A stretch of 32,000 nucleotides of DNA, from contig NZ_CP034549.1 in the NCBI RefSeq assembly GCF_003966335.1, forward strand, positions 1,530,001 to 1,562,000, given 5' to 3'. The position numbers and the translations under genes were made by a program. This DNA is from Nonlabens ponticola (lineage in GTDB: Bacteria > Bacteroidota > Bacteroidia > Flavobacteriales > Flavobacteriaceae). Numbering within the stretch: the first letter of the stretch is position 1; the number at the start of each line of letters is the position of its first letter. The notes below the pieces were generated by a model. It was not told the DNA's origin. It worked only from the letters and a program-made list of their open reading frames with translations, and did not search any database. Of the stretch, positions 4,883 to 31,707 are shown in pieces.

Positions 4883-5771
4883 AAGAGACTTTGGTGGCGT
4901 CATCTCGGCCTTTTTTGAATTTTTAAGAGGAAACCTACGCGGTCTCATCAGTGTGTTTATAGGTTATAATGGGATATTTTTCATCCTGTTTCTCATCAGC
5001 GTTTATTTCTTAATAACGGGAATAGTTGATGTAACGATGATCTCGATTACCGGCGGCGACGAGGATACGGCCTTTATTTTAATTGCAGTTTCTCTCATCG
5101 CTTTGTTTGGTTTTATCATTTTGGCCTCCATGTTTAATTATGCGCTATCCAGTGCATATGTGTCATTATATGAGCAAGAAAAGGTCAACAATCTAGATCG
5201 TAAGAAAGTGTGGAGACTTGCCAAAGGTCATCTGTTCGGTATGTTCTTGTTCATGTTGTGTCTGGTGGTCATTTATTTTATCAACGCGATATTACAAGTC
5301 GTATTAGGCTTTATTCCTGTTTTAGGATTATTAGCATCGTTGGTAGTAAGTTTTGGTCTCAATAGCTGGATTAGTATGAGTATTTTTAGCTACGTGCATA
5401 ATGAGAATCACAACGTTTTTGATGCTTTTGGCGAGGTATGGACGCTTTTATTTTCAGGATTTTGGAAAGCAATTGGCGCCAATTTTATCGTTGGAATTTT
5501 ACTGCAACTAGGTTTTGCAGCTATGAGCATCGTACCTACTATTTTGTTGGGTACCACCGCATATTTAGTCATTGACTCACCACAGGAATTTGGTGATAAC
5601 TTGTTTTTACAGATCTTAATCATACTTGTGGTAACTGCATTTTGTGTCATCGTTATGTTTATACAGATGCTGTCACAGATCATGAATGCTTTTCTATATT
5701 TCAACCTGCACGAGACAAAGAATAACATCTATTTACGCTCGCGTATTGAAAAATTGGGAACTACCGCATGA
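4854..5771 (+). CDS. Multi-pass membrane protein of unknown function
   Basis: ORF with about 6 hydrophobic helices. The ATG at 4854 (MQPYIEPRLRRDFGG...) is preferred over 4821. It overlaps the upstream gene by 29 nt and the downstream gene by ATGA. Confidence 0.55.
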   Translation: MQPYIEPRLRRDFGGVISAFFEFLRGNLRGLISVFIGYNGIFFILFLISVYFLITGIVDVTMISITGGDEDTAFILIAVSLIALFGFIILASMFNYALSSAYVSLYEQEKVNNLDRKKVWRLAKGHLFGMFLFMLCLVVIYFINAILQVVLGFIPVLGLLASLVVSFGLNSWISMSIFSYVHNENHNVFDAFGEVWTLLFSGFWKAIGANFIVGILLQLGFAAMSIVPTILLGTTAYLVIDSPQEFGDNLFLQILIILVVTAFCVIVMFIQMLSQIMNAFLYFNLHETKNNIYLRSRIEKLGTTA

Positions 5772-6526
5772 AATATATAATGTTCATGTTGATTGTTTTG
5801 GGTTCCGCTTTCGCGAAAGCGCAATCACTACAAGATCTAGTGCCACAAATAGAGCAACGTCCTCGACAAATCACTGACACGCTGGATCGTGACTACGACC
5901 AAAGAGCCGTTGAGGCACGAGCATTACCAGCCGATCTTGCAGATAATTATACGGGTGCCGATTTTGACTACACAGACACCACAAACGACGTCAACAATGT
6001 GTTTGAAGAGTTTTTTGAATGGTTGTTCCAGGGTATTGCATCCATTTTTGGTGTAGAGCTCAGTCCGTTTTGGCTTAAGTTTTTACAATACACGGTATAT
6101 GTATTATTTGCTGCACTGGCTATTTATTTATTGGTTAGATTACTAGGTAAGGAACAGGCGTCTGGGCTTACCATCAAAGCAGGTAAGAAAAAAGCCAGCA
6201 TACGAGCTGGAGAGACGCACATTGAAGAAATCGATTTAAACAAATTGATCGCCGATGCGGTAAATGGTAACGATTATCGCAGCGCCATACGTTATCAATA
6301 TCTCAACGTCCTCAAAAAATTAAGTGCCGCTGGCGTGATTGTTTGGGATTATCAAAAGACCAATGCCGACTATTATCGAGAGATTAAAAAACAAGAAGTA
6401 AAGGATCAATTCAAACGCATTTCATATCTATACGATCATGTATGGTATGGTGAATTTGCAGTGGATAGAAAAGTGTATGATCAGGCGTTGGTGCAGTTTA
6501 ATGACATTAAGAAAACAGCTGCTTGA
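5768..6526 (+). CDS. DUF4129 domain-containing protein (signal peptide, one TM, cytoplasmic DUF4129)
   Basis: Signal peptide MKYIMFMLIVLGSAFAKAQS. TM helix FLQYTVYVLFAALAIYLLV. C-terminal ...YRSAIRYQYLNVLKKL...KTNADYYREI...YLYDHVWYGEF is the DUF4129 pattern as I recall it. Confidence 0.65.
   Translation: MKYIMFMLIVLGSAFAKAQSLQDLVPQIEQRPRQITDTLDRDYDQRAVEARALPADLADNYTGADFDYTDTTNDVNNVFEEFFEWLFQGIASIFGVELSPFWLKFLQYTVYVLFAALAIYLLVRLLGKEQASGLTIKAGKKKASIRAGETHIEEIDLNKLIADAVNGNDYRSAIRYQYLNVLKKLSAAGVIVWDYQKTNADYYREIKKQEVKDQFKRISYLYDHVWYGEFAVDRKVYDQALVQFNDIKKTAA
5807..5820. repeat. Copy 2 of the GCTTTCGCGAAAGC palindrome, in frame (A-F-A-K-A) in the signal peptide of the DUF4129 gene
   Basis: Read directly: tcc gct ttc gcg aaa gcg caa = S A F A K A Q. 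Confidence 0.95.
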
Positions 6527-9017: not shown

Positions 9018-10348
9018 TGAAGAGATTTTATAAGAGCATTTATTTAACGCCTAGATTATTCACGGTCATCATTTGTCAGGTGGTATTCTTTATTCTAAGT
9101 TTTTTCTTTAGAAGATTAGAAGGATACGCCATGATAGGTGTTTACATTCTGCTGGGATTATTTCTAGTGGATATGCTTTTATTATATCGTGCTAGCGGCA
9201 TTGACGCAACTCGCATATTGCCAGAGAAATTTTCCAATGGTGATGATAATCCAGTTCATATAACCGTAGTCAATAATTATCCTTACAAGATCAAAGTAGA
9301 GATCGTGGATGAATTGCCCGTTCAATTCCAGAAGCGTGATTTTAAATTAATGAATGATCTAGCCGCTGGCGGTACACATACTTCTATGTATGAGGCAAGA
9401 CCAGTGGATCGAGGTGAGTACCATTTTGGGTCACTAAACATTTATGCAATCAGCGACATAGGTTTTATCAAGCGTCGATATCGATTTGATAGCGATGCAA
9501 TGGTGCCCAATTATCCGTCATTTCTTCAAATGCGTAAGTATGAGCTCATGGCCTTCACCAACAAACTGCGTGATTATGGTATAAAAAAAATACGCAGGAT
9601 AGGGCACACCATGGAATTTGAGCAGATTAAGGATTACACACAAGGTGATGACGTGCGCAATATCAATTGGAAAGCATCAGCTAAGCGTAATTCCTTGATG
9701 ATCAATCAATATCAGGATGAGAAATCACAACCGGTATATAGCGTGATTGACAAAGGCCGCGTGATGAAAATGCCTTTTGAAGGCATGAAACTTGTCGATT
9801 ATGCAATAAATGCAACGCTAGTCATATCTAATATCGCCTTGAAAAAAGGTGATAAGGCAGGAATGTTTAGTTTCTCAGATAAGGTTCAAAATCAAGTGAT
9901 GGCTCAAAAACGCTCCTCACAAATGAATGTCATCCTTGAAACGCTTTACAATTTGGATACAGATTTTAAAGAGAGTGATTTCTCAAGATTATACATCGAT
10001 ATCAAACGTAGAATTACACAACGCAGTTTGCTATTGTTGTACAGTAATTTTGAAACACTAGACGCTCTACATAGACAATTGCCATACTTACAGGCTATTG
10101 CAAAGAACCATTTGTTGGTAGTTATTTTCTTTGAAAATACAGAGCTTAAAAAGCTTACCGATCTAGAAACTGAAAATACCCGACAGGTATTTCAACAAAC
10201 GATTGCCCAAAAGTTTAGGTATGAAAAAAAGCTCGTTGTAAATGAGCTAAATAATTATGGTATTCAAACGATCCTTACAAAACCACAGGATCTTACAGTG
10301 AATACGATTAATAAATATTTAGAGATAAAAGCTAGAGGCTTGCTCTAA
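9017..10348 (+). CDS. DUF58 (vWA-like) domain protein, the usual MoxR partner
   Basis: Two N-terminal TM helices. DUF58 signature ...GDDVRNINWKASAKRNSLMINQYQDEK.... The GTG start overlaps the moxR TAG (TAGTG). Confidence 0.85.
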   Translation: MKRFYKSIYLTPRLFTVIICQVVFFILSFFFRRLEGYAMIGVYILLGLFLVDMLLLYRASGIDATRILPEKFSNGDDNPVHITVVNNYPYKIKVEIVDELPVQFQKRDFKLMNDLAAGGTHTSMYEARPVDRGEYHFGSLNIYAISDIGFIKRRYRFDSDAMVPNYPSFLQMRKYELMAFTNKLRDYGIKKIRRIGHTMEFEQIKDYTQGDDVRNINWKASAKRNSLMINQYQDEKSQPVYSVIDKGRVMKMPFEGMKLVDYAINATLVISNIALKKGDKAGMFSFSDKVQNQVMAQKRSSQMNVILETLYNLDTDFKESDFSRLYIDIKRRITQRSLLLLYSNFETLDALHRQLPYLQAIAKNHLLVVIFFENTELKKLTDLETENTRQVFQQTIAQKFRYEKKLVVNELNNYGIQTILTKPQDLTVNTINKYLEIKARGLL

Positions 10349-11466: not shown

Positions 11467-12003
11467 ATGCCCAGAATTATACTCTTGCTGCTCACTATTA
11501 CCATTGTAAGCAGCTGTACCAGCTATAAACAACTAGCCAAGCAAGATCCTAACGAGACCACATACTACTATGATAAGAACCTAGAGGGCAGCTATGAAAA
11601 CGAAGTCTCAGAAAATCAAAAAGTTAGTTTGTGGCAAGATTTGTATCGCGCCAGATACAATAAAGATATCCCGCACAGCGCCTACCGCACACAGGTCAAG
11701 ATTAATGTGCCATCTGATCGCGAACTTATTGCAACGCTCTATCGAGATGGTCGTAAAGAGGATAGCCTACTATTTAAAGGCAAGCAAAAAGGTAAATACT
11801 TTGTCTTGCGTAAACGTAGCCGATTCTTACCATTATTTCCAATCTTACTAGCTTCCGAAGGCACGAAGACGATCATAGGCAACGACCTTGAAGGCAACCT
11901 CACATTGGTTCAAAAAATTTCTAGCTCTTCATCGTCACCTTTATTGAACACATCTTCAGGAATAGACGCAGAGGTGATCACCGCAGTTTATGCCAGAAAA
12001 TAA
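11467..12003 (+). CDS. Hypothetical lipoprotein
   Basis: The ATG at 11467 gives MPRIILLLLTITIVSSC (lipobox). A terminator follows the gene. Confidence 0.55.
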   Translation: MPRIILLLLTITIVSSCTSYKQLAKQDPNETTYYYDKNLEGSYENEVSENQKVSLWQDLYRARYNKDIPHSAYRTQVKINVPSDRELIATLYRDGRKEDSLLFKGKQKGKYFVLRKRSRFLPLFPILLASEGTKTIIGNDLEGNLTLVQKISSSSSSPLLNTSSGIDAEVITAVYARK

Positions 12004-12006
12004 AAA

Positions 12007-12038
12007 CCCAACCATTGCTGGTTGGGCTTCCTATTTTT
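12007..12038. terminator. Bidirectional rho-independent terminator
   Basis: Stem CCCAACCA / TGGTTGGG (12007-12014 / 12019-12026) with loop TTGC. T-runs lie on both sides (cttcctattttt on +, ttttta on -). It sits between convergent genes. Confidence 0.6.
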
Positions 12039-12068: not shown

Positions 12069-12082
12069 GCTTTCGCGAAAGC
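12069..12082. repeat. Copy 3 of the GCTTTCGCGAAAGC palindrome (context tTACGCTTTCGCGAAAGCGGTAAca)
   Basis: Read directly. It is intergenic, 29 nt downstream of the stop of the minus-strand 82-aa gene. Confidence 0.95.
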
Positions 12083-13404: not shown

Positions 13405-13418
13405 GCTTTCGCGAAAGC
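13405..13418. repeat. Copy 4 of the GCTTTCGCGAAAGC palindrome (context gTCACGCTTTCGCGAAAGCTAAaa)
   Basis: Read directly. It is intergenic, between the patatin 3' end and the peroxiredoxin promoter. Confidence 0.95.
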
Positions 13419-16692: not shown

Positions 16693-17112
16693 TCAAACCT
16701 TACCACTTGCTAGATATTCGCCAGCATTCATGATAGGTAAGTTTGTTGATTTAAAATCTTTCTTATTTCTAGTTATAATAATGTCCAGCTGATTTTCAAC
16801 CGCTGTGTAATACTGCAGTCCGTCTTCAAAATCTTTGAAATTATTGTCGTTTAATGCCAACTCGATAATTTTCTCATCTAAAGATAAGACACCTACTATG
16901 ATTTTGAATTTTCGTAAGATAGATCGAGCGTCACGAGCCGCCATGGATTTAGACAAAATATAGTTTGTATTGGCAAATGATAGTGATGATATAAATAACG
17001 AAACCTCTTGTCTATCTGCCTTTGAAAACAATAATGCAGCATCCTTGTAAAACGGTTCTCTTTGTGCTAATAGATCAATAACGATATTGGTGTCAACTAG
17101 CAAGCGTTTCAT
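16693..17112 (-). CDS. PIN-domain (VapC-like) toxin
   Basis: N-terminal LLVDTNIVIDLL with acidic residues spaced as in PIN nucleases. 139 aa. Its ATG overlaps the antitoxin stop (ATGA). Confidence 0.8.
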   Translation of the reverse strand: MKRLLVDTNIVIDLLAQREPFYKDAALLFSKADRQEVSLFISSLSFANTNYILSKSMAARDARSILRKFKIIVGVLSLDEKIIELALNDNNFKDFEDGLQYYTAVENQLDIIITRNKKDFKSTNLPIMNAGEYLASGKV

Positions 17113-17354
17113 TGATACTTCTTTTCTAGATGATCAGTATAATCACTGGCGACATCTAGATCGTTCTCCAATTCTATCACACCGCTCAAACTTTGAATCA
17201 ATGGTGTGATTTGGTTCTCTTCTTGGTCTTGCTTAGTCACGGATTGCAGATAAGACTCTATAAGTTTTGAAAGGCTCGTCTTATTCTTTTTGGCATATAG
17301 TTTTGCCTGTTCAATAATCAATTGATTCAAGCTTAAGGTGAGTTTCTTGTCCAT
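17109..17354 (-). CDS. Putative antitoxin (DUF6364-like) of the PIN toxin
   Basis: 81-aa ORF directly upstream of and overlapping the PIN gene. The N-terminus KLTLSLNQLIIEQAKLYAKKNKTSLSKLIESYL has an RHH-like pattern. Confidence 0.6.
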   Translation of the reverse strand: MDKKLTLSLNQLIIEQAKLYAKKNKTSLSKLIESYLQSVTKQDQEENQITPLIQSLSGVIELENDLDVASDYTDHLEKKYQ

Positions 17355-19134: not shown

Positions 19135-19683
19135 TTACTGCTTCACATATTTATTGTAAAGCTTTTTTTCAAAACCTAGCTTTCGCGAAAGCGTAAACAA
19201 CACATTCAACAAAGGAAGCATCAGTCTAAACGGTAGTGAGTCGACTTGTGTGTCGCCCCATTTGAGTAATATGATGGCATAAAACGGATTGTAGGGAATC
19301 TGGTTGCTGCTGAAGGTTTTGCCGTCTCGCACCAATCCAAAAAGTGCCGCCATAAAATTTTCAAATCCGGGCGACCCTGGTTCCAGCCGCGCTTGAAAAA
19401 CGATGGGCCTGTCCGTAGGATTGTAGAATCTATGGTTATCCGGCACGGGCACCTTGAAATCTTGACCTGGCGACAGCCTCAATTCCTTGCCTAGATAGTG
19501 CACTCCTAGTGTTCCTTTTTGCGGAATAAAGTGTTCAGTAAATCGTTTGTGATAATGAATGGGATTGCCGCCATCGGGCTGTAGTTCTACTTCGATTAAG
19601 GTGTATGCGCCATTGGTTTCGGCACTGGTTTCAAGGATGGTGGCTTGCTCTTTTGTAATAGGATTGATGTAGGTGGTAGGCAT
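19135..19683 (-). CDS. Cupin domain-containing protein
   Basis: GGNPIHYHKRFTEHF... and ...HRFYNP... form a two-motif cupin barrel. A hydrophobic C-terminal tail carries palindrome copy 6. Confidence 0.7.
   Translation of the reverse strand: MPTTYINPITKEQATILETSAETNGAYTLIEVELQPDGGNPIHYHKRFTEHFIPQKGTLGVHYLGKELRLSPGQDFKVPVPDNHRFYNPTDRPIVFQARLEPGSPGFENFMAALFGLVRDGKTFSSNQIPYNPFYAIILLKWGDTQVDSLPFRLMLPLLNVLFTLSRKLGFEKKLYNKYVKQ
19179..19192. repeat. Copy 6 of the GCTTTCGCGAAAGC palindrome, inside the 3' end of the cupin gene (frame L-S-R-K)
   Basis: Read directly. The minus strand reads acg ctt tcg cga aag cta = T L S R K L. Confidence 0.95.
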
Positions 19684-22452: not shown

Positions 22453-23277
22453 TTACTTTTTCATCAACATGGCTTTGCCAGTGAACTCTGCCATCCCGAT
22501 TTTTGGATTGTTGTAAAGTTCCACTTTTGCATCGCCGCTAGCTCTCAATTCTAGATTGTCTTTAGCATTCACTTGCGCATCGGCATTTCTAGTAATTTTT
22601 AGTTTAAGATCTTTAACTTCTAAATTCTTTCCTTCCATTTTTGATCTGCCCTCAAGCACCATCGTACTATTGTCTAGATCGCCTTCCATTCGACTCTCTG
22701 CGCGGTCAGTCAACATAAAGTCAACACGATCATACATAGTCAAGGCTTTAAGATTACTAGAACCAGATAAGTTGATCTGTGCACTAGAACCAGACAGATT
22801 ACATTCTGCTCTAGAGTCTGCGCTACCATTAAAGACAAGCTCGTCCACCTGACCAGTGAGATAGACTCGTGCGTCATCCTTAAGGTTCACCTGCAGATTA
22901 TCCATACGTAGATCGGTTAACGAACTCAACTGCGCATCGTCTTTGACATTAATAGTTGTAAACTCTTCTGTATAAATAATGTTGATCTTCAATTCCTTGC
23001 TACGACGTATCTCTGCCGTTTGATTGATGGTAAGGTTACCGTTTTGCACTAGAATGTTAATGAACGGCTGTATGTTAGAATCTGTAATGATCTCCACTTG
23101 CGGACTCGTTCCTTGAGCAATGGCAATTTCATAATCGCCACCTATTTCTATGGACTCAAACATGTCCACATCTATGATGCGTTTAGTAACTTCTTTATTT
23201 CCTTTGATTTTTGTGCGGTCTTGCGCTTTCGCGAAAGCGAAACTCAACAACAACATCACAACAACTATCTTTTTCAT
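22453..23277 (-). CDS. DUF2807 (head GIN / 'Toastrack'-type) domain secreted protein
   Basis: Signal peptide MKKIVVVMLLLSFAFAKAQD. Repetitive beta-helix-like segments (LSGSSAQINLSGSSNLKA, ASGDAKVELY) are typical of DUF2807. Confidence 0.65.
   Translation of the reverse strand: MKKIVVVMLLLSFAFAKAQDRTKIKGNKEVTKRIIDVDMFESIEIGGDYEIAIAQGTSPQVEIITDSNIQPFINILVQNGNLTINQTAEIRRSKELKINIIYTEEFTTINVKDDAQLSSLTDLRMDNLQVNLKDDARVYLTGQVDELVFNGSADSRAECNLSGSSAQINLSGSSNLKALTMYDRVDFMLTDRAESRMEGDLDNSTMVLEGRSKMEGKNLEVKDLKLKITRNADAQVNAKDNLELRASGDAKVELYNNPKIGMAEFTGKAMLMKK
23225..23238. repeat. Copy 7 of the GCTTTCGCGAAAGC palindrome, in frame (A-F-A-K-A) in the signal peptide of the DUF2807 gene
   Basis: Read directly. 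The minus strand reads ttc gct ttc gcg aaa gcg caa = F A F A K A Q. Confidence 0.95.
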
Positions 23278-26004: not shown

Positions 26005-26018
26005 GCTTTCGCGAAAGC
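26005..26018. repeat. Copy 8 of the palindrome, the full 20-bp perfect form TACGCTTTCGCGAAAGCGTA (26002-26021)
   Basis: Read directly. It lies in the 303-bp divergent intergenic region. Confidence 0.95.
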
Positions 26019-28738: not shown

Positions 28739-29785
28739 ATGATACCAAAGGTTCATCCTACATTTAAATTAAACGGTAAATCGCTTGACCACAATGGTCT
28801 TATGACCGTTGCCTACAGCTATGTAAAAGAAGGTGAGTTATGGGAAAAACAAGTAGGTGATTTTATTCTCAACTGGCTGGATGATTTTGACTTTCATACC
28901 GTATATACCAGCGGTTCCACAGGAACACCCAAGGAAACAAGACTCGACAAGCAGCACATGATTAATAGTGCACAACTCACAGGTGAGCGATTCAATCTTG
29001 CTGCTGAAAGTGATGTGTTATGCTGTTTACCATTAAGCTATATCGCTGGTAAAATGATGATGGTACGAGCCATACATCTAGGATGGCATCTAGATCTCGT
29101 GCAGCCACAACGTGAGCCGCTGGAACATGTGGAAAAGCGCTACGATTTCACCGCTCTGACAGCATATCAGGCAAAGCACTCGATCGATTACCTATACAAG
29201 AGCCGCAAAACTATCATAGGTGGTGGCCCAGTAGATGATTTATTAATTAAAGCGTTGAATGGACGTCACACAAGAGCCTATCATACTTATGGAATGACCG
29301 AGACGTGCACTCACGTAGGTATCAAAGAATTGTACCCTAACAAGGAAGATCATTTTACCACCTTACCCAACATCAAGGTAGCTGCCAGCGACGATGGCTG
29401 TCTAATTGTTCACGCACCAGAGCTTGCCAGCGATCCTGTCCATACAAATGATCTGGTAGAGATTATTGATGAGCACTCTTTCAAAATTTTAGGTAGAGCA
29501 GACGATGTCATCATTACCGGTGGCGTCAAGGTGCATCCTGATGTGGTAGAAAACAAACTGTCCGCCATCATCGACCAGCGTTTCTTTATAGCTGGTTTAC
29601 CCGACAATGACTTAGGAAATGAGGTTGTGTTAATTGTAGAAGGGCAGGAACAGGATTACGCTTTCGCGAAAGCTAAACTAGACAAATACGAGAAACCACG
29701 ACAGGTTTTATTTGCAAACAAATTTACCGAGACCCATACAGGTAAAATTGATAAAATCGCAGTCTTGAAGTCGGTAACCGCTTAA
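28739..29785 (+). CDS. menE: o-Succinylbenzoate-CoA ligase (short bacteroidete form)
   Basis: AMP-binding motifs YTSGSTGTPKE, YGMTET and GRADDVIITGGVKVHP. Sits next to menC. Confidence 0.8.
   Translation: MIPKVHPTFKLNGKSLDHNGLMTVAYSYVKEGELWEKQVGDFILNWLDDFDFHTVYTSGSTGTPKETRLDKQHMINSAQLTGERFNLAAESDVLCCLPLSYIAGKMMMVRAIHLGWHLDLVQPQREPLEHVEKRYDFTALTAYQAKHSIDYLYKSRKTIIGGGPVDDLLIKALNGRHTRAYHTYGMTETCTHVGIKELYPNKEDHFTTLPNIKVAASDDGCLIVHAPELASDPVHTNDLVEIIDEHSFKILGRADDVIITGGVKVHPDVVENKLSAIIDQRFFIAGLPDNDLGNEVVLIVEGQEQDYAFAKAKLDKYEKPRQVLFANKFTETHTGKIDKIAVLKSVTA
29660..29673. repeat. Copy 9 of the GCTTTCGCGAAAGC palindrome, in frame (Y-A-F-A-K-A-K) inside menE
   Basis: Read directly: tac gct ttc gcg aaa gct aaa. 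Confidence 0.95.
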
Positions 29786-30279: not shown

Positions 30280-31707
30280 CTAGTTAGACAGTTTTTTACG
30301 CAGGTCTTCTACGTACTTATTGAATTGTTTATCTGTACTGGCAAGATTATCAACCGTTTTACAAGCGTGTAACACGGTAGCGTGATCGCGTTTTCCTATT
30401 TGAGAACCTATGCTTGCAAGTGAAGCTTTGGTCATTTTTTTGGAAAAGTACATAGCTAGTTGTCTTGCTTGTACAATATGACGCTTTCTAGTTTTAGATT
30501 GCAACGTCTCCACATCCATCTGGAAGTAATCACTTACCACTTTCTGGATTTGATCAATACTTATTTCACGCTTGGTATTCTTAACGTAGTTCTCAACTAT
30601 TTTTTTAGCTAGTTCTATCGTGATTTCCTTGCGGTTAAAAGAAGAGTGAGCAATCAACGAAATGATAGCACCTTCCAACTCACGTATGTTAGTCTTGATG
30701 TTATCTGCAAGGTAGTTGATGATGTCCTCATCCATTTCTACACCGTCGCGGTATAGTTTGTTCTTGATGATGGATACACGAGTTTCATAATCAGGATGGT
30801 TAAGCTCTGCACTTAAACCCCATTTAAAACGTGACAATAGGCGCTGCTCTATATCTTGCATGTCCACTGGCTTCTTATCGCTAGTAAGAATTACCTGCTT
30901 GCCATTTTGATGCAAGTGATTGAATATGTGGAAGAAGACGTCTTGCGTTCCTGCCTTACCAGCAAAAAACTGTATGTCATCCACGATCAACACATCGACG
31001 ATCTGATAGAAGTGAATAAAATCATTTCTGTTATTCTTACGTACAGACTCTATAAACTGCTGTGTAAATTTCTCTGCACTTATATATAAGACTGTCTTGT
31101 CAGGATAGTTTTCCTTGATGCCTACACCTATGGCATGAGCAAGGTGTGTCTTACCCAATCCTACACCACCAAATATCAATAACGGATTAAAAGAAGTACC
31201 ACCTGGCTTATTGGCTACGGCCATACCTGCGCTACGAGCTAATCTATTTGAATCACCTTCTAGAAAGCTATCAAAATTATACGATGGATTAAGTTGTGAC
31301 TCAATCTTTACATTACGTATTCCAGGAATCACAAATGGGTTCTTGAGCTCTGGACTTTTACTGCGCACTGGCGCATCTACTGATTGTGAATTTTTGATCG
31401 CACGATTGCTACTAGGAATCTTTTCGGTAAATGGTTCCATGCCTTTTAGGGCATTTTCCATTTTAATCGCATAGATCAATTTTGCACCTTCACCTAGCTC
31501 TTTTGTAAGGGCCGTCTTTAATAATTTGATGTAGTGCTCTTCTAACCATTCATAGAAAAAACGGCTAGGTACCTGAATACTTAAAGCGGTATCAGTAAGC
31601 TTAACGGCTTTAATAGGAGCAAACCATGTTCTATATGCTTGCGGGTTTATATTGTCCTTTATAAACGTGAGACAATTTTCCCATACCGATTCTGCCGTCG
31701 ATGCCAT
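30280..31707 (-). CDS. dnaA: Chromosomal replication initiator protein DnaA
   Basis: Walker A GGVGLGKTHL, Walker B LIVDDIQF and the C-terminal DNA-binding signature ...IGKRDHATVLHACK.... Confidence 0.97.
   Translation of the reverse strand: MASTAESVWENCLTFIKDNINPQAYRTWFAPIKAVKLTDTALSIQVPSRFFYEWLEEHYIKLLKTALTKELGEGAKLIYAIKMENALKGMEPFTEKIPSSNRAIKNSQSVDAPVRSKSPELKNPFVIPGIRNVKIESQLNPSYNFDSFLEGDSNRLARSAGMAVANKPGGTSFNPLLIFGGVGLGKTHLAHAIGVGIKENYPDKTVLYISAEKFTQQFIESVRKNNRNDFIHFYQIVDVLIVDDIQFFAGKAGTQDVFFHIFNHLHQNGKQVILTSDKKPVDMQDIEQRLLSRFKWGLSAELNHPDYETRVSIIKNKLYRDGVEMDEDIINYLADNIKTNIRELEGAIISLIAHSSFNRKEITIELAKKIVENYVKNTKREISIDQIQKVVSDYFQMDVETLQSKTRKRHIVQARQLAMYFSKKMTKASLASIGSQIGKRDHATVLHACKTVDNLASTDKQFNKYVEDLRKKLSN

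Follow-up and report, generated by a model that had tools for sequence, protein, structure and literature searches.

Two unrelated Nonlabens signal peptides share copies of a genus-wide iterated palindrome that is probably maintained as DNA

Among the described genome words, the cyanobacterial highly iterated palindrome HIP1 is over-represented, conserved within as well as between open reading frames (ORFs) and non-randomly spaced (PMC5861425; PMC4390886), and more recent work connects it with the efficiency of transformation and with a role like that of Chi (PMC5861425; PMC4390886; bioRxiv 10.1101/2024.09.10.611283). Uptake sequences accumulate at tolerant coding positions and thereby inflate particular peptides (PMC2817400), and RecA prefers TGG/GT-rich DNA, which resembles Chi (PMC3763553). 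Within the Flavobacteriales, Riemerella is naturally competent and prefers self DNA by a mechanism that is unknown (PMC7965970). Here, a 14-nt perfect palindrome, GCTTTCGCGAAAGC, is described from a 32,000-nt stretch of Nonlabens ponticola DNA (Flavobacteriaceae; assembly GCF_003966335.1, contig NZ_CP034549.1, forward-strand positions 1,530,001 to 1,562,000), which is called the window and whose own numbering is used throughout. Nineteen bases shared by two unrelated genes of the window are very probably two copies of this palindrome, which is genus-wide, highly iterated and kept as DNA. As no earlier description of the 14-mer, of a Nonlabens palindrome or of an iterated palindrome in Flavobacteriaceae was found in the literature searched, the element appears to be previously undescribed.

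The 19 nucleotides, CGCTTTCGCGAAAGCGCAA, are present without mismatch at 5806-5824 (plus strand) and 23221-23239 (minus strand), and encode residues 14-19, A14-F-A-K-A18-Q19, of two predicted secreted proteins. The first is a DUF4129-domain protein of 252 aa (5768-6526, plus strand; Pfam PF13559, E = 6e-06) with orthologues in Nonlabens species, the second a DUF2807/GIN-domain protein of 274 aa (22453-23277, minus strand; Pfam PF10988, E = 1.9e-30). In both, the 19-mer closes the signal peptide: MKYIMFMLIVLGSAFAKA/Q in the DUF4129 protein (M1-A18 at 5768-5821, Q19 codon at 5822-5824, predicted signal peptidase I cut AKA/Q) and MKKIVVVMLLLSFAFAKA/Q in the DUF2807 protein (M1-A18 at 23224-23277, Q19 codon at 23221-23223, minus strand). 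BLASTP similarity between the two proteins is confined to the signal peptide, with none elsewhere. A first-pass annotation had reported the same 19 nt in two unrelated genes, encoding AFAKAQ at the end of both signal peptides and centred on a dispersed palindrome. Each of these statements holds, as both copies are exact, the translation agrees and the GCTTTCGCGAAAGC core occurs in eight exact copies in the window against 0.13 expected. The 19-nt identity between the DUF4129 and DUF2807 genes is far beyond chance, and represents two copies of a dispersed element with no private tie between the two genes. The identity runs past the palindrome because the CAA (Gln) codon and the preceding TCC or TTC codon belong to an extended 22-nt form of the element with a symmetric flank consensus, TTNC-GCTTTCGCGAAAGC-GNAA. 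One extended copy, TTCC-GCTTTCGCGAAAGC-GCAA at 5803-5824 (plus strand, core 5807-5820), encodes S13-A-F-A-K-A-Q19 of the DUF4129 protein, and the other, TTTC-GCTTTCGCGAAAGC-GCAA at 23221-23242 (minus strand, core 23225-23238), encodes F13-A-F-A-K-A-Q19 of the DUF2807 protein. Both assignments rest on exact matches and on the codons of orthologues, and the two copies with their flanks are identical at 21 of 22 positions.

The palindrome is restricted to one genus among those sampled. One genome per species was scanned for the DUF4129 orthologue, which gave 80 loci with 10-kb flanks. Pooled Nonlabens loci (642 kb) hold 142 exact, 14 one-mismatch and 7 two-mismatch copies, with far fewer than one exact copy expected, while the orthologous loci of 53 other Flavobacteriaceae genomes (1.02 Mb) hold 0, 0 and 2, respectively. 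No exact or one-mismatch copy was found in these 53 loci of Maribacter, Arenibacter, Croceitalea, Muriicola, Aquimarina, Patiriisocius, Allomuricauda and others. Among the Nonlabens-type loci (L001-L028), every full-length one (~20 kb) has three to six exact copies and the shorter ones zero to three, the 3.1-kb locus L003 having none; taken over all full-length Nonlabens loci examined, the range is 3-8 per ~20 kb. All 149 TTCGCGAA octamers in the Nonlabens loci fall within exact or degenerate copies of the element, and no other strongly iterated word was found in the window. The density is ~1 copy per 4.5 kb in the sampled Nonlabens regions; as the window, with dnaA at its right end (30280-31707, minus strand), and the orthologous census loci all lie near the replication origin, copies may be more or less dense elsewhere on the chromosome. 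Among the genera sampled, the palindrome is nearly perfect as a marker by which to place metagenomic contigs and phages in the Nonlabens lineage.

Conservation of the element acts on its DNA. From amino-acid composition, 0.23 AFAKA peptides would be expected in the long ORFs of the Nonlabens loci, yet there are 49; of these, 46 (94%) are encoded by the exact core, the other three being one synonymous base off. From codon usage, in which GCG is a minor Ala codon (15%), the chance of a palindromic encoding per AFAKA peptide is 0.0076 (0.8%). In the larger sample of other genera AFAKA occurs once, encoded by different codons. Among 14 AFAKA-bearing DUF4129 orthologues with 44-58% protein identity, 12 read GCT TTC GCG AAA GCG and the remaining two carry one synonymous change each. 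Across ten DUF4129 orthologues, codon identity is 90-100% over AFAKA and the adjoining CAA, as against 55 other invariant-residue columns, in which the commonest codon mostly reaches a frequency of ~0.3-0.9 (median ~0.55). Because the commonest codon reaches only ~0.3-0.9 at most of these columns, synonymous sites are taken to be largely saturated. The DUF2807 signal peptide behaves alike, since in the window and seven orthologues the AFAKA codons are identical in six of eight cases, the exceptions being one decayed copy, GCT TAT GCG AAA GCT (AYAKA), and one protein without a copy. Thus, in orthologues at about 44-62% identity, the palindrome codons of the signal peptide stay fixed while flanking codons and those of other invariant residues vary. 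The proposal of the first-pass annotation that selection acts at the DNA level on these codons is strongly supported by this pattern. AFAKA encoded by varied synonymous codons in repeat-free genomes, which it had named as the sign of ordinary peptide-level conservation, was looked for, and in those genomes AFAKA is absent at these sites. Peptide-level convergence is rejected by the codon statistics, and with high confidence the element is maintained as DNA, be it through selection or through a sequence-specific molecular drive.

An independent view of the distribution of copies was obtained by scanning metagenomes with the 16-mer, which yielded 170 non-redundant copies in low-GC contigs. Of these, 103 lie in ORFs of at least 150 aa and 59 are intergenic-like. 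All three reading frames are used, with AFAKA in 56, RFRES in 27 and LSRK in 20 of the 103 coding copies. Spacers of the convergent, divergent and tandem classes all have 0.57-0.66 copies per kb, against an approximately fourfold lower 0.15 per kb in coding DNA, so that the copies show no preference for terminator or promoter regions. Spacing is more even than expected, with a coefficient of variation of 0.55 against 0.86 in simulation and six spacings below 1 kb against 19.3 expected, and it is likewise even in the window together with ten diverse genomes. A restriction-modification signature of the NruI-type hexamer TCGCGA, which lies within the palindrome, was rejected, as TCGCGA outside the element occurs 72 times in the Nonlabens loci against 79 expected.

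Each copy lies at the centre of a mirror-symmetric composition domain of ~70 nt in all. On the 5' side of a copy, read on either strand, 25-30 nt are G/T-rich and C-poor (C 0.05-0.09 against a background of 0.19), the GC skew of this arm being +0.56, +0.46 and +0.20 in successive bins and ~0 past 31 nt, and the 3' side mirrors it by being A/C-rich and G-poor. The domain is found at coding, intergenic and independent metagenome copies and around all eight window copies, for example at 1792-1865 and 23195-23268, and the skew is absent around control palindromic hexamers. In the metagenome copies the flank positions +/-2 and +/-4 covary, and in-register covariation ends at +/-4. A copy-specific extended hairpin was rejected, as real and chimeric arms fold equally well; because they fold alike beyond +/-4, the flanks keep a composition rather than a copy-specific pairing. 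The hairpin energy is -8.3 kcal/mol for the 22-mer and -1.9 kcal/mol for the core. As candidate sources of the skew, mutational traces of single-stranded DNA, a zone of RecA loading and the footprint of a protein may be considered.

The remaining copies of the window illustrate the variety of sites. Four copies of the core are intergenic. The one at 1822-1835 lies between convergent genes, 3' of the second rhomboid gene, and has an orthologous copy in most Nonlabens loci (at ~6700 in locus coordinates), the one at 13405-13418 lies between the patatin and AhpC genes at a position kept across the genus, and the one at 26005-26018 lies in a divergent promoter region within the longest perfect palindrome of the window, TACGCTTTCGCGAAAGCGTA. 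The fourth, at 12069-12082, is distinct from a canonical bidirectional intrinsic terminator, GGAAGCCCAACC..GGTTGGGTTTTT, whose hairpin occupies 12002-12031, 38 nt from this copy; the genome therefore uses ordinary terminators, from which the palindrome is separate. Besides the two signal-peptide copies, two others lie within ORFs: the copy at 19179-19192 in the C-terminal tail of a cupin gene (19135-19683, minus strand), read in the LSRK frame and kept in six orthologues, and the copy at 29660-29673 near the C-terminus of an AMP-binding enzyme gene (28739-29785, plus strand), read in the AFAKA frame followed by K and likewise kept in orthologues.

Orthologue alignments indicate how such copies originate. 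At the alignment column of the DUF4129 copy, a second Nonlabens clade has ordinary cleavage regions (..NIGKAQ, ..GNAQ, ..SSAQ), its signal peptides are no shorter, and the same clade carries the palindrome elsewhere. The signal peptide of locus L014 reads GGG ATC GCG AAA GCG CAA, which is a half-element. Whether AFAKA is an insertion or a replacement had been raised by the first-pass annotation, and the alignments answer in favour of a replacement at equal length, with ..GKAQ or ..GNAQ as ancestral state and a half-element in L014. The same is seen at other sites, where a C-terminal copy in the DUF4129 protein of other species (..DESAFAKAK..) aligns without gaps with ..DRKVYDQAL.. of the window, and a copy in the MoxR linker (..NAFAKAE..) with ..SAFVPDQ... 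At the sites orthologous to the eight window copies, Nonlabens sp. Hel1_33_55 has six exact, one degenerate and one absent copy. The pattern in these alignments is the one to be expected from point-mutational gain and long retention, as against transposition. New copies accordingly arise in place by point substitution wherever the gene product tolerates them, and in both window genes the element has replaced an ordinary ..xKAQ cleavage region, so that it now gives Ala at -3 and -1 followed by a Gln which, in Bacteroidota, would be exposed and cyclised once signal peptidase I has cleaved.

Why the element is found at the end of signal peptides may be understood from its translation. Frame 0 of the 22-mer reads (F/S)-AFAKA-(Q/E/K), and the two window peptides, MK-YIMFMLIVLG-SAFAKA/Q (DUF4129) and MKK-IVVVMLLLSF-AFAKA/Q (DUF2807), both follow the Sec/signal peptidase I pattern, in which a Lys/Arg n-region and a hydrophobic h-region precede a cleavage site with Gln at +1 and small residues at -3 and -1. 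The Gln19 column is invariant in 37 DUF4129 orthologues, and cleavage at AKA/Q is inferred from it, from Ala at -3 and -1 and from the Bacteroidetes Q-rule, by which Gln directly follows the signal peptidase I cut (PMC5837995). Eight independent metagenome copies lie in signal peptides; three have Q directly after AFAKA, four have Gln 2-4 residues further on (AFAKA-HAQ, -LTAQ, -NSQ, -YSQ), and one precedes Cys, which suggests a possible lipoprotein. By a heuristic classification, the upstream residues resemble a signal peptide in 7.8% of coding copies, as opposed to 1.6% of all ORF positions (4.8-fold, p = 0.0003); the 10 residues upstream of copies exceed the 10 downstream by 0.50 hydropathy units (p = 0.0006), and strongly hydrophobic upstream segments are threefold enriched. 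In either orientation the skewed domain provides T-rich, hydrophobic codons upstream and A-rich, polar codons downstream. Because the skewed arms translate into hydrophobic and then polar residues, the junction of signal peptide and mature protein is a natural coding niche of the element, and the succession of h-region, c-region and polar mature N-terminus fits the element as a whole. The suggestion that the repeat was exapted as a ready-made cleavage cassette is thus only partly borne out. The element does supply the A-x-A/Q site in both genes, but it was substituted in and not inserted, in five of the eight independent metagenome signal peptides AFAKA precedes a later ..xQ site, and signal peptides are one favoured niche among linkers, C-terminal tails, membrane-helix ends and, above all, intergenic DNA.

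The word is also carried by phages. The 16-mer was found in 40 stretches of viral contigs, and a 37-kb phage contig encoding terminase, portal, head protease, major head protein, tail sheath and baseplate hub has at least six copies, among which are copies within the terminase gene, in the AFAKA frame, and within the portal gene, in the RFRES frame. This contig, IMGVR_UViG_3300040781_000495 (L101, L118, L121), is a tailed-phage genome which also encodes a thymidylate synthase and has a host-like copy density. Copy sites, those in the terminase and portal genes included, are kept among related viral contigs (within L085-L121). Therefore, the process that maintains the word also acts on phage DNA, or else the phage exploits it.

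A different word was observed in Patiriisocius; with this exception, no comparable word was found in the other genera sampled. TTTCCGAAG/CTTCGGAAA, which is no palindrome, occurs in 8 copies in Patiriisocius marinistellae KK4 (L044; for example at 10024-10032) and in 11 copies in a Patiriisocius metagenome-assembled genome (L050) per ~20.7 kb, against ~0.13 expected. It is present in both orientations, mostly within ORFs and in several frames, including one copy in the signal peptide of the DUF4129 orthologue (..LLSIYFGNLLRAQD), and its flanks show a weak excess of T upstream and of A downstream. Possibly it represents a second dialect of what is seen in Nonlabens. Elsewhere near the DUF4129 orthologue, Maribacter loci (L031, L034, L038, L049, L052, L074) have tandem repeats of hexanucleotide kind (AAAGCC, CAACCAT-type, ACAGCC) of up to ~19 units, which are unrelated to the palindrome and are suspected to belong to the low-complexity linker at the N-terminus of the MoxR-like ATPase encoded downstream of the orthologue. 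In the window itself, a PIN-domain toxin (16693-17112) and its DUF6364 partner (17109-17354) occupy 16693-17354 on the minus strand, and a HepT/nucleotidyltransferase pair takes the same site in Nonlabens sp. Hel1_33_55 and a metagenomic relative, so that the interval between the GSDH-like and Na+/H+ antiporter genes looks like a hotspot of toxin-antitoxin exchange.

The data thus establish for the palindrome its conservation at the DNA level, genus restriction, origin in place, use of frames, spacing, flank skew and presence in phages. It could be supposed that AFAKAQ is simply a good signal peptidase I site, so that convergence of the peptide together with codon bias gives identity of the DNA. 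A-x-A followed by Q is indeed the canonical cleavage context of Bacteroidota and AFAKAQ is kept in many orthologues, but this account is almost certainly wrong, since it predicts 0.8% palindromic encoding where 94% is observed with a minor Ala codon, and leaves aside that the 14-mer is four times denser in intergenic DNA and is used in two other reading frames, that sister genera have functional signal peptides without AFAKA, and that the Nonlabens clade with GKAQ/GNAQ sites carries the palindrome elsewhere. A small mobile element inserted in frame into signal peptides, like the repetitive extragenic palindromes with their associated transposases (REP/RAYT) or the Rickettsia palindromic elements (RPEs), is very improbable, too. 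While a hairpin-capable palindrome with covarying flanks at +/-2 and +/-4, in hundreds of genus-specific copies enriched between genes, would suit such an element, ~60% of the copies are coding, they are unclustered with a deficit of short spacings, and they hold orthologous positions across deeply diverged species. Moreover, the orthologue alignments show equal-length substitutions with a half-site intermediate and no indels, and the hairpin is weak (-8.3 kcal/mol for the 22-mer) with real and chimeric arms folding alike. Marginally less credible even than a mobile element is a function in RNA as bidirectional intrinsic terminator, mRNA stabiliser or regulatory hairpin, as which some copies 10-30 nt past both stop codons of convergent genes and the possibility of a hairpin might be read. 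No copy was flagged as terminator-like, a canonical terminator adjoins the copy at 12069, the polarity of the arms (T-rich upstream, A-rich downstream) is wrong for a terminator, and spacers of all three orientations, convergent, divergent and tandem, are equally dense in copies. Loop and stem are invariant in sequence, which is more than a kept structure, the core hairpin is worth only -1.9 kcal/mol, and the palindrome has no Rfam match, the sole Rfam match in the window (mir-927, E = 0.63) being located elsewhere and due to chance.

The accounts in which the DNA itself is read or processed deserve more weight. A chromosome-organising site of an abundant dimeric DNA-binding protein (nucleoid-associated, Noc/SlmA/ParB-like or of a domain boundary), with no role in recombination or uptake, is rather unlikely; it would be in line with perfect dyad symmetry over 14-22 bp and with the regular spacing, the periodicity of HIP1 having been read likewise (PMC5861425). 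Protein sites, however, are usually degenerate, whereas exact copies exceed one-mismatch copies 10:1 here, and neither a strand-asymmetric flank skew nor copies in phage structural genes are expected of a duplex-binding dimer. The half-site spacing TTTC-GC-GAAA is presumably also unlike the parS and Noc-binding consensus, and the Bacteroidetes LexA-like operators (CTAA-N5-TTAG, GGA-N5-TCC), considered as a further candidate, are unrelated to the palindrome. Less probable again is a functionless by-product of a sequence-specific mutational or repair bias, such as a methyltransferase with short-patch repair or the perfection of quasi-palindromes by template switching. A bias of this kind would act on any DNA replicating in the cell, that of phages included, and the covariation of the flanks and their G/T skew are compatible with single-strand or templated processes; yet no known repair-biased word comes near a specificity of 14 nt, TCGCGA shows neither excess nor avoidance outside the element (72 against 79), even spacing is not predicted by pure mutational bias, and for HIP1 a conservation analysis favoured selection over neutral replenishment (PMC5861425). 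Tentatively, and by analogy, the element could instead be read by a factor acting on DNA ends or on incoming DNA, as a bidirectional Chi-like or uptake-like signal of self DNA. The G/T-rich 5' arm, on either strand, would then be a zone of RecA loading or of persistence of single-stranded DNA. In its fuller form, namely a bidirectional self-DNA signal read in DNA uptake or in the processing of double-strand ends, spaced ~4.5 kb chromosome-wide, copied by phages and with a sister dialect TTTCCGAAG in Patiriisocius, the proposal is still speculative and a shade less probable.

Several points weigh against the self-DNA signal and the genus-wide picture around it. Known Chi and uptake sequences have 5-12 nt and are asymmetric, whereas the Nonlabens core is a 14-nt perfect palindrome, and the flank skew may have been left by mutation without belonging to a functional site. 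Neither a cognate protein nor a methyltransferase nor a competence phenotype came to light, no genome-wide search having been made. The genome-wide copy number of ~600-700 is an extrapolation from 32 kb and ~20-kb loci, as is the distribution between origin and terminus; all genome loci lie near dnaA, and many of these loci are orthologous and hence not independent. The metagenome sample is independent, but of unknown taxonomy and made of loci picked for containing a copy, and the signal-peptide classes come from a heuristic and not from SignalP; the same heuristic was applied to copies and to all ORF positions.

A genome-level DNA signal can fix a protein-sorting signal, as it does here in a pair of unrelated secreted proteins and in their orthologues throughout much of the genus, and the constraint on the shared cleavage region has nothing to do with secretion. 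Readers of signal-peptide conservation, codon usage or dN/dS in these genomes must allow for the palindrome. A self-DNA signal, if this holds true, would be the first such system in Bacteroidota and an independent, longer and more specific counterpart of HIP1, through which the 30-year-old question of HIP1 function could become experimentally tractable. The exactness over 14 nt, the regular spacing, the mirror skew and the presence in phage genes offer handles on the role and spread of HIP-, USS- and Chi-like words, and the palindrome is a candidate tool for better genetic manipulation of these marine flavobacteria.

Set against described elements, the palindrome differs in defining features from mobile repeats and intrinsic terminators. 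REP/RAYT elements and RPEs share with it that they are dispersed palindromes, and RPEs also lie in frame within protein-coding genes. REPs are, however, extragenic, imperfect and clustered and RPEs are insertions of 100-150 nt, whereas the Nonlabens copies have 14-22 nt, are substitution-born, evenly spaced and fixed at orthologous positions. Most independent copies (103 of 170) fall within ORFs of 150 aa or more, and there are 6 spacings shorter than 1 kb where 19.3 would be expected; a RAYT gene was not searched for. Intrinsic terminators differ as well, as no copy is flagged as one, the downstream arm is A/C-rich and the core hairpin amounts to -1.9 kcal/mol, and the palindrome belongs to no Rfam family. 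With a signal peptidase I site under the Q-rule it shares the Ala residues at -3 and -1 and the unvarying Gln at +1 (PMC5837995), but while ordinary c-regions drift freely, an unrelated genomic signal fixes the nucleotides of the c-region in these genes and in their orthologues.

With Chi, whose recognition by RecBCD or AddAB attenuates end resection, the Nonlabens word has in common that it is taxon-specific, occurs at ~1 per 4-5 kb, lies in coding DNA and would be useful to phages, and its G/T-rich 5' arm recalls the preference of RecA; the density, this arm and the phage copies are circumstantial evidence of a possible Chi-like role. Chi sites differ in being short words of 5-8 nt, asymmetric and co-oriented with replication, while the Nonlabens word, because it is a palindrome, is readable from both directions, and its 14 exact bases and hairpin-capable sequence are unlike any known Chi.

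Closer still, by analogy, appear to be the uptake signal sequences (USS) of Pasteurellaceae and DNA uptake sequences (DUS) of Neisseriaceae on the one hand and HIP1 of cyanobacteria on the other. Like USS and DUS, the Nonlabens word is lineage-specific with exact copies far above near-misses, accumulates in place by point mutation, is enriched between genes and, where coding, sits at tolerant, poorly conserved residues in preferred frames and makes certain peptides unduly common in the proteome (PMC2817400). USS and DUS differ in being asymmetric, 9-12 nt long and three to four times denser. HIP1 (GCGATCGC) and the Nonlabens word are both over-represented in their lineage by orders of magnitude, within genes as well as between them; orthologous sites of both are conserved past the expectation from codon usage, and both have a quasi-regular, non-random spacing. 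Presumably, coding copies of HIP1 commonly read AIA (from GCG ATC GC), which like AFAKA is an Ala-x-Ala peptide. The Nonlabens word differs from HIP1 in its core of 14 nt (22 extended) against 8 nt, in its sequence and phylum, in being ~10 times sparser and in its confinement to one genus as opposed to a phylum-wide presence, and it is no HIP1 in the strict sense, which is defined by the HIP1 sequence along with orphan methyltransferases recognising its internal sites, since its sequence is another and its internal TCGCGA is neither enriched nor avoided outside the element. It also has a strand-asymmetric flank skew of 60-70 nt, of which no mention was found in the HIP1 abstracts consulted. 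By over-representation within its lineage and orthologous conservation beyond codon usage, the element is classed as a new, genus-specific genome word of the HIP/USS/Chi-like kind which belongs to none of these families by sequence and whose closest analogues are HIP1 and the uptake sequences of Pasteurellaceae and Neisseriaceae.

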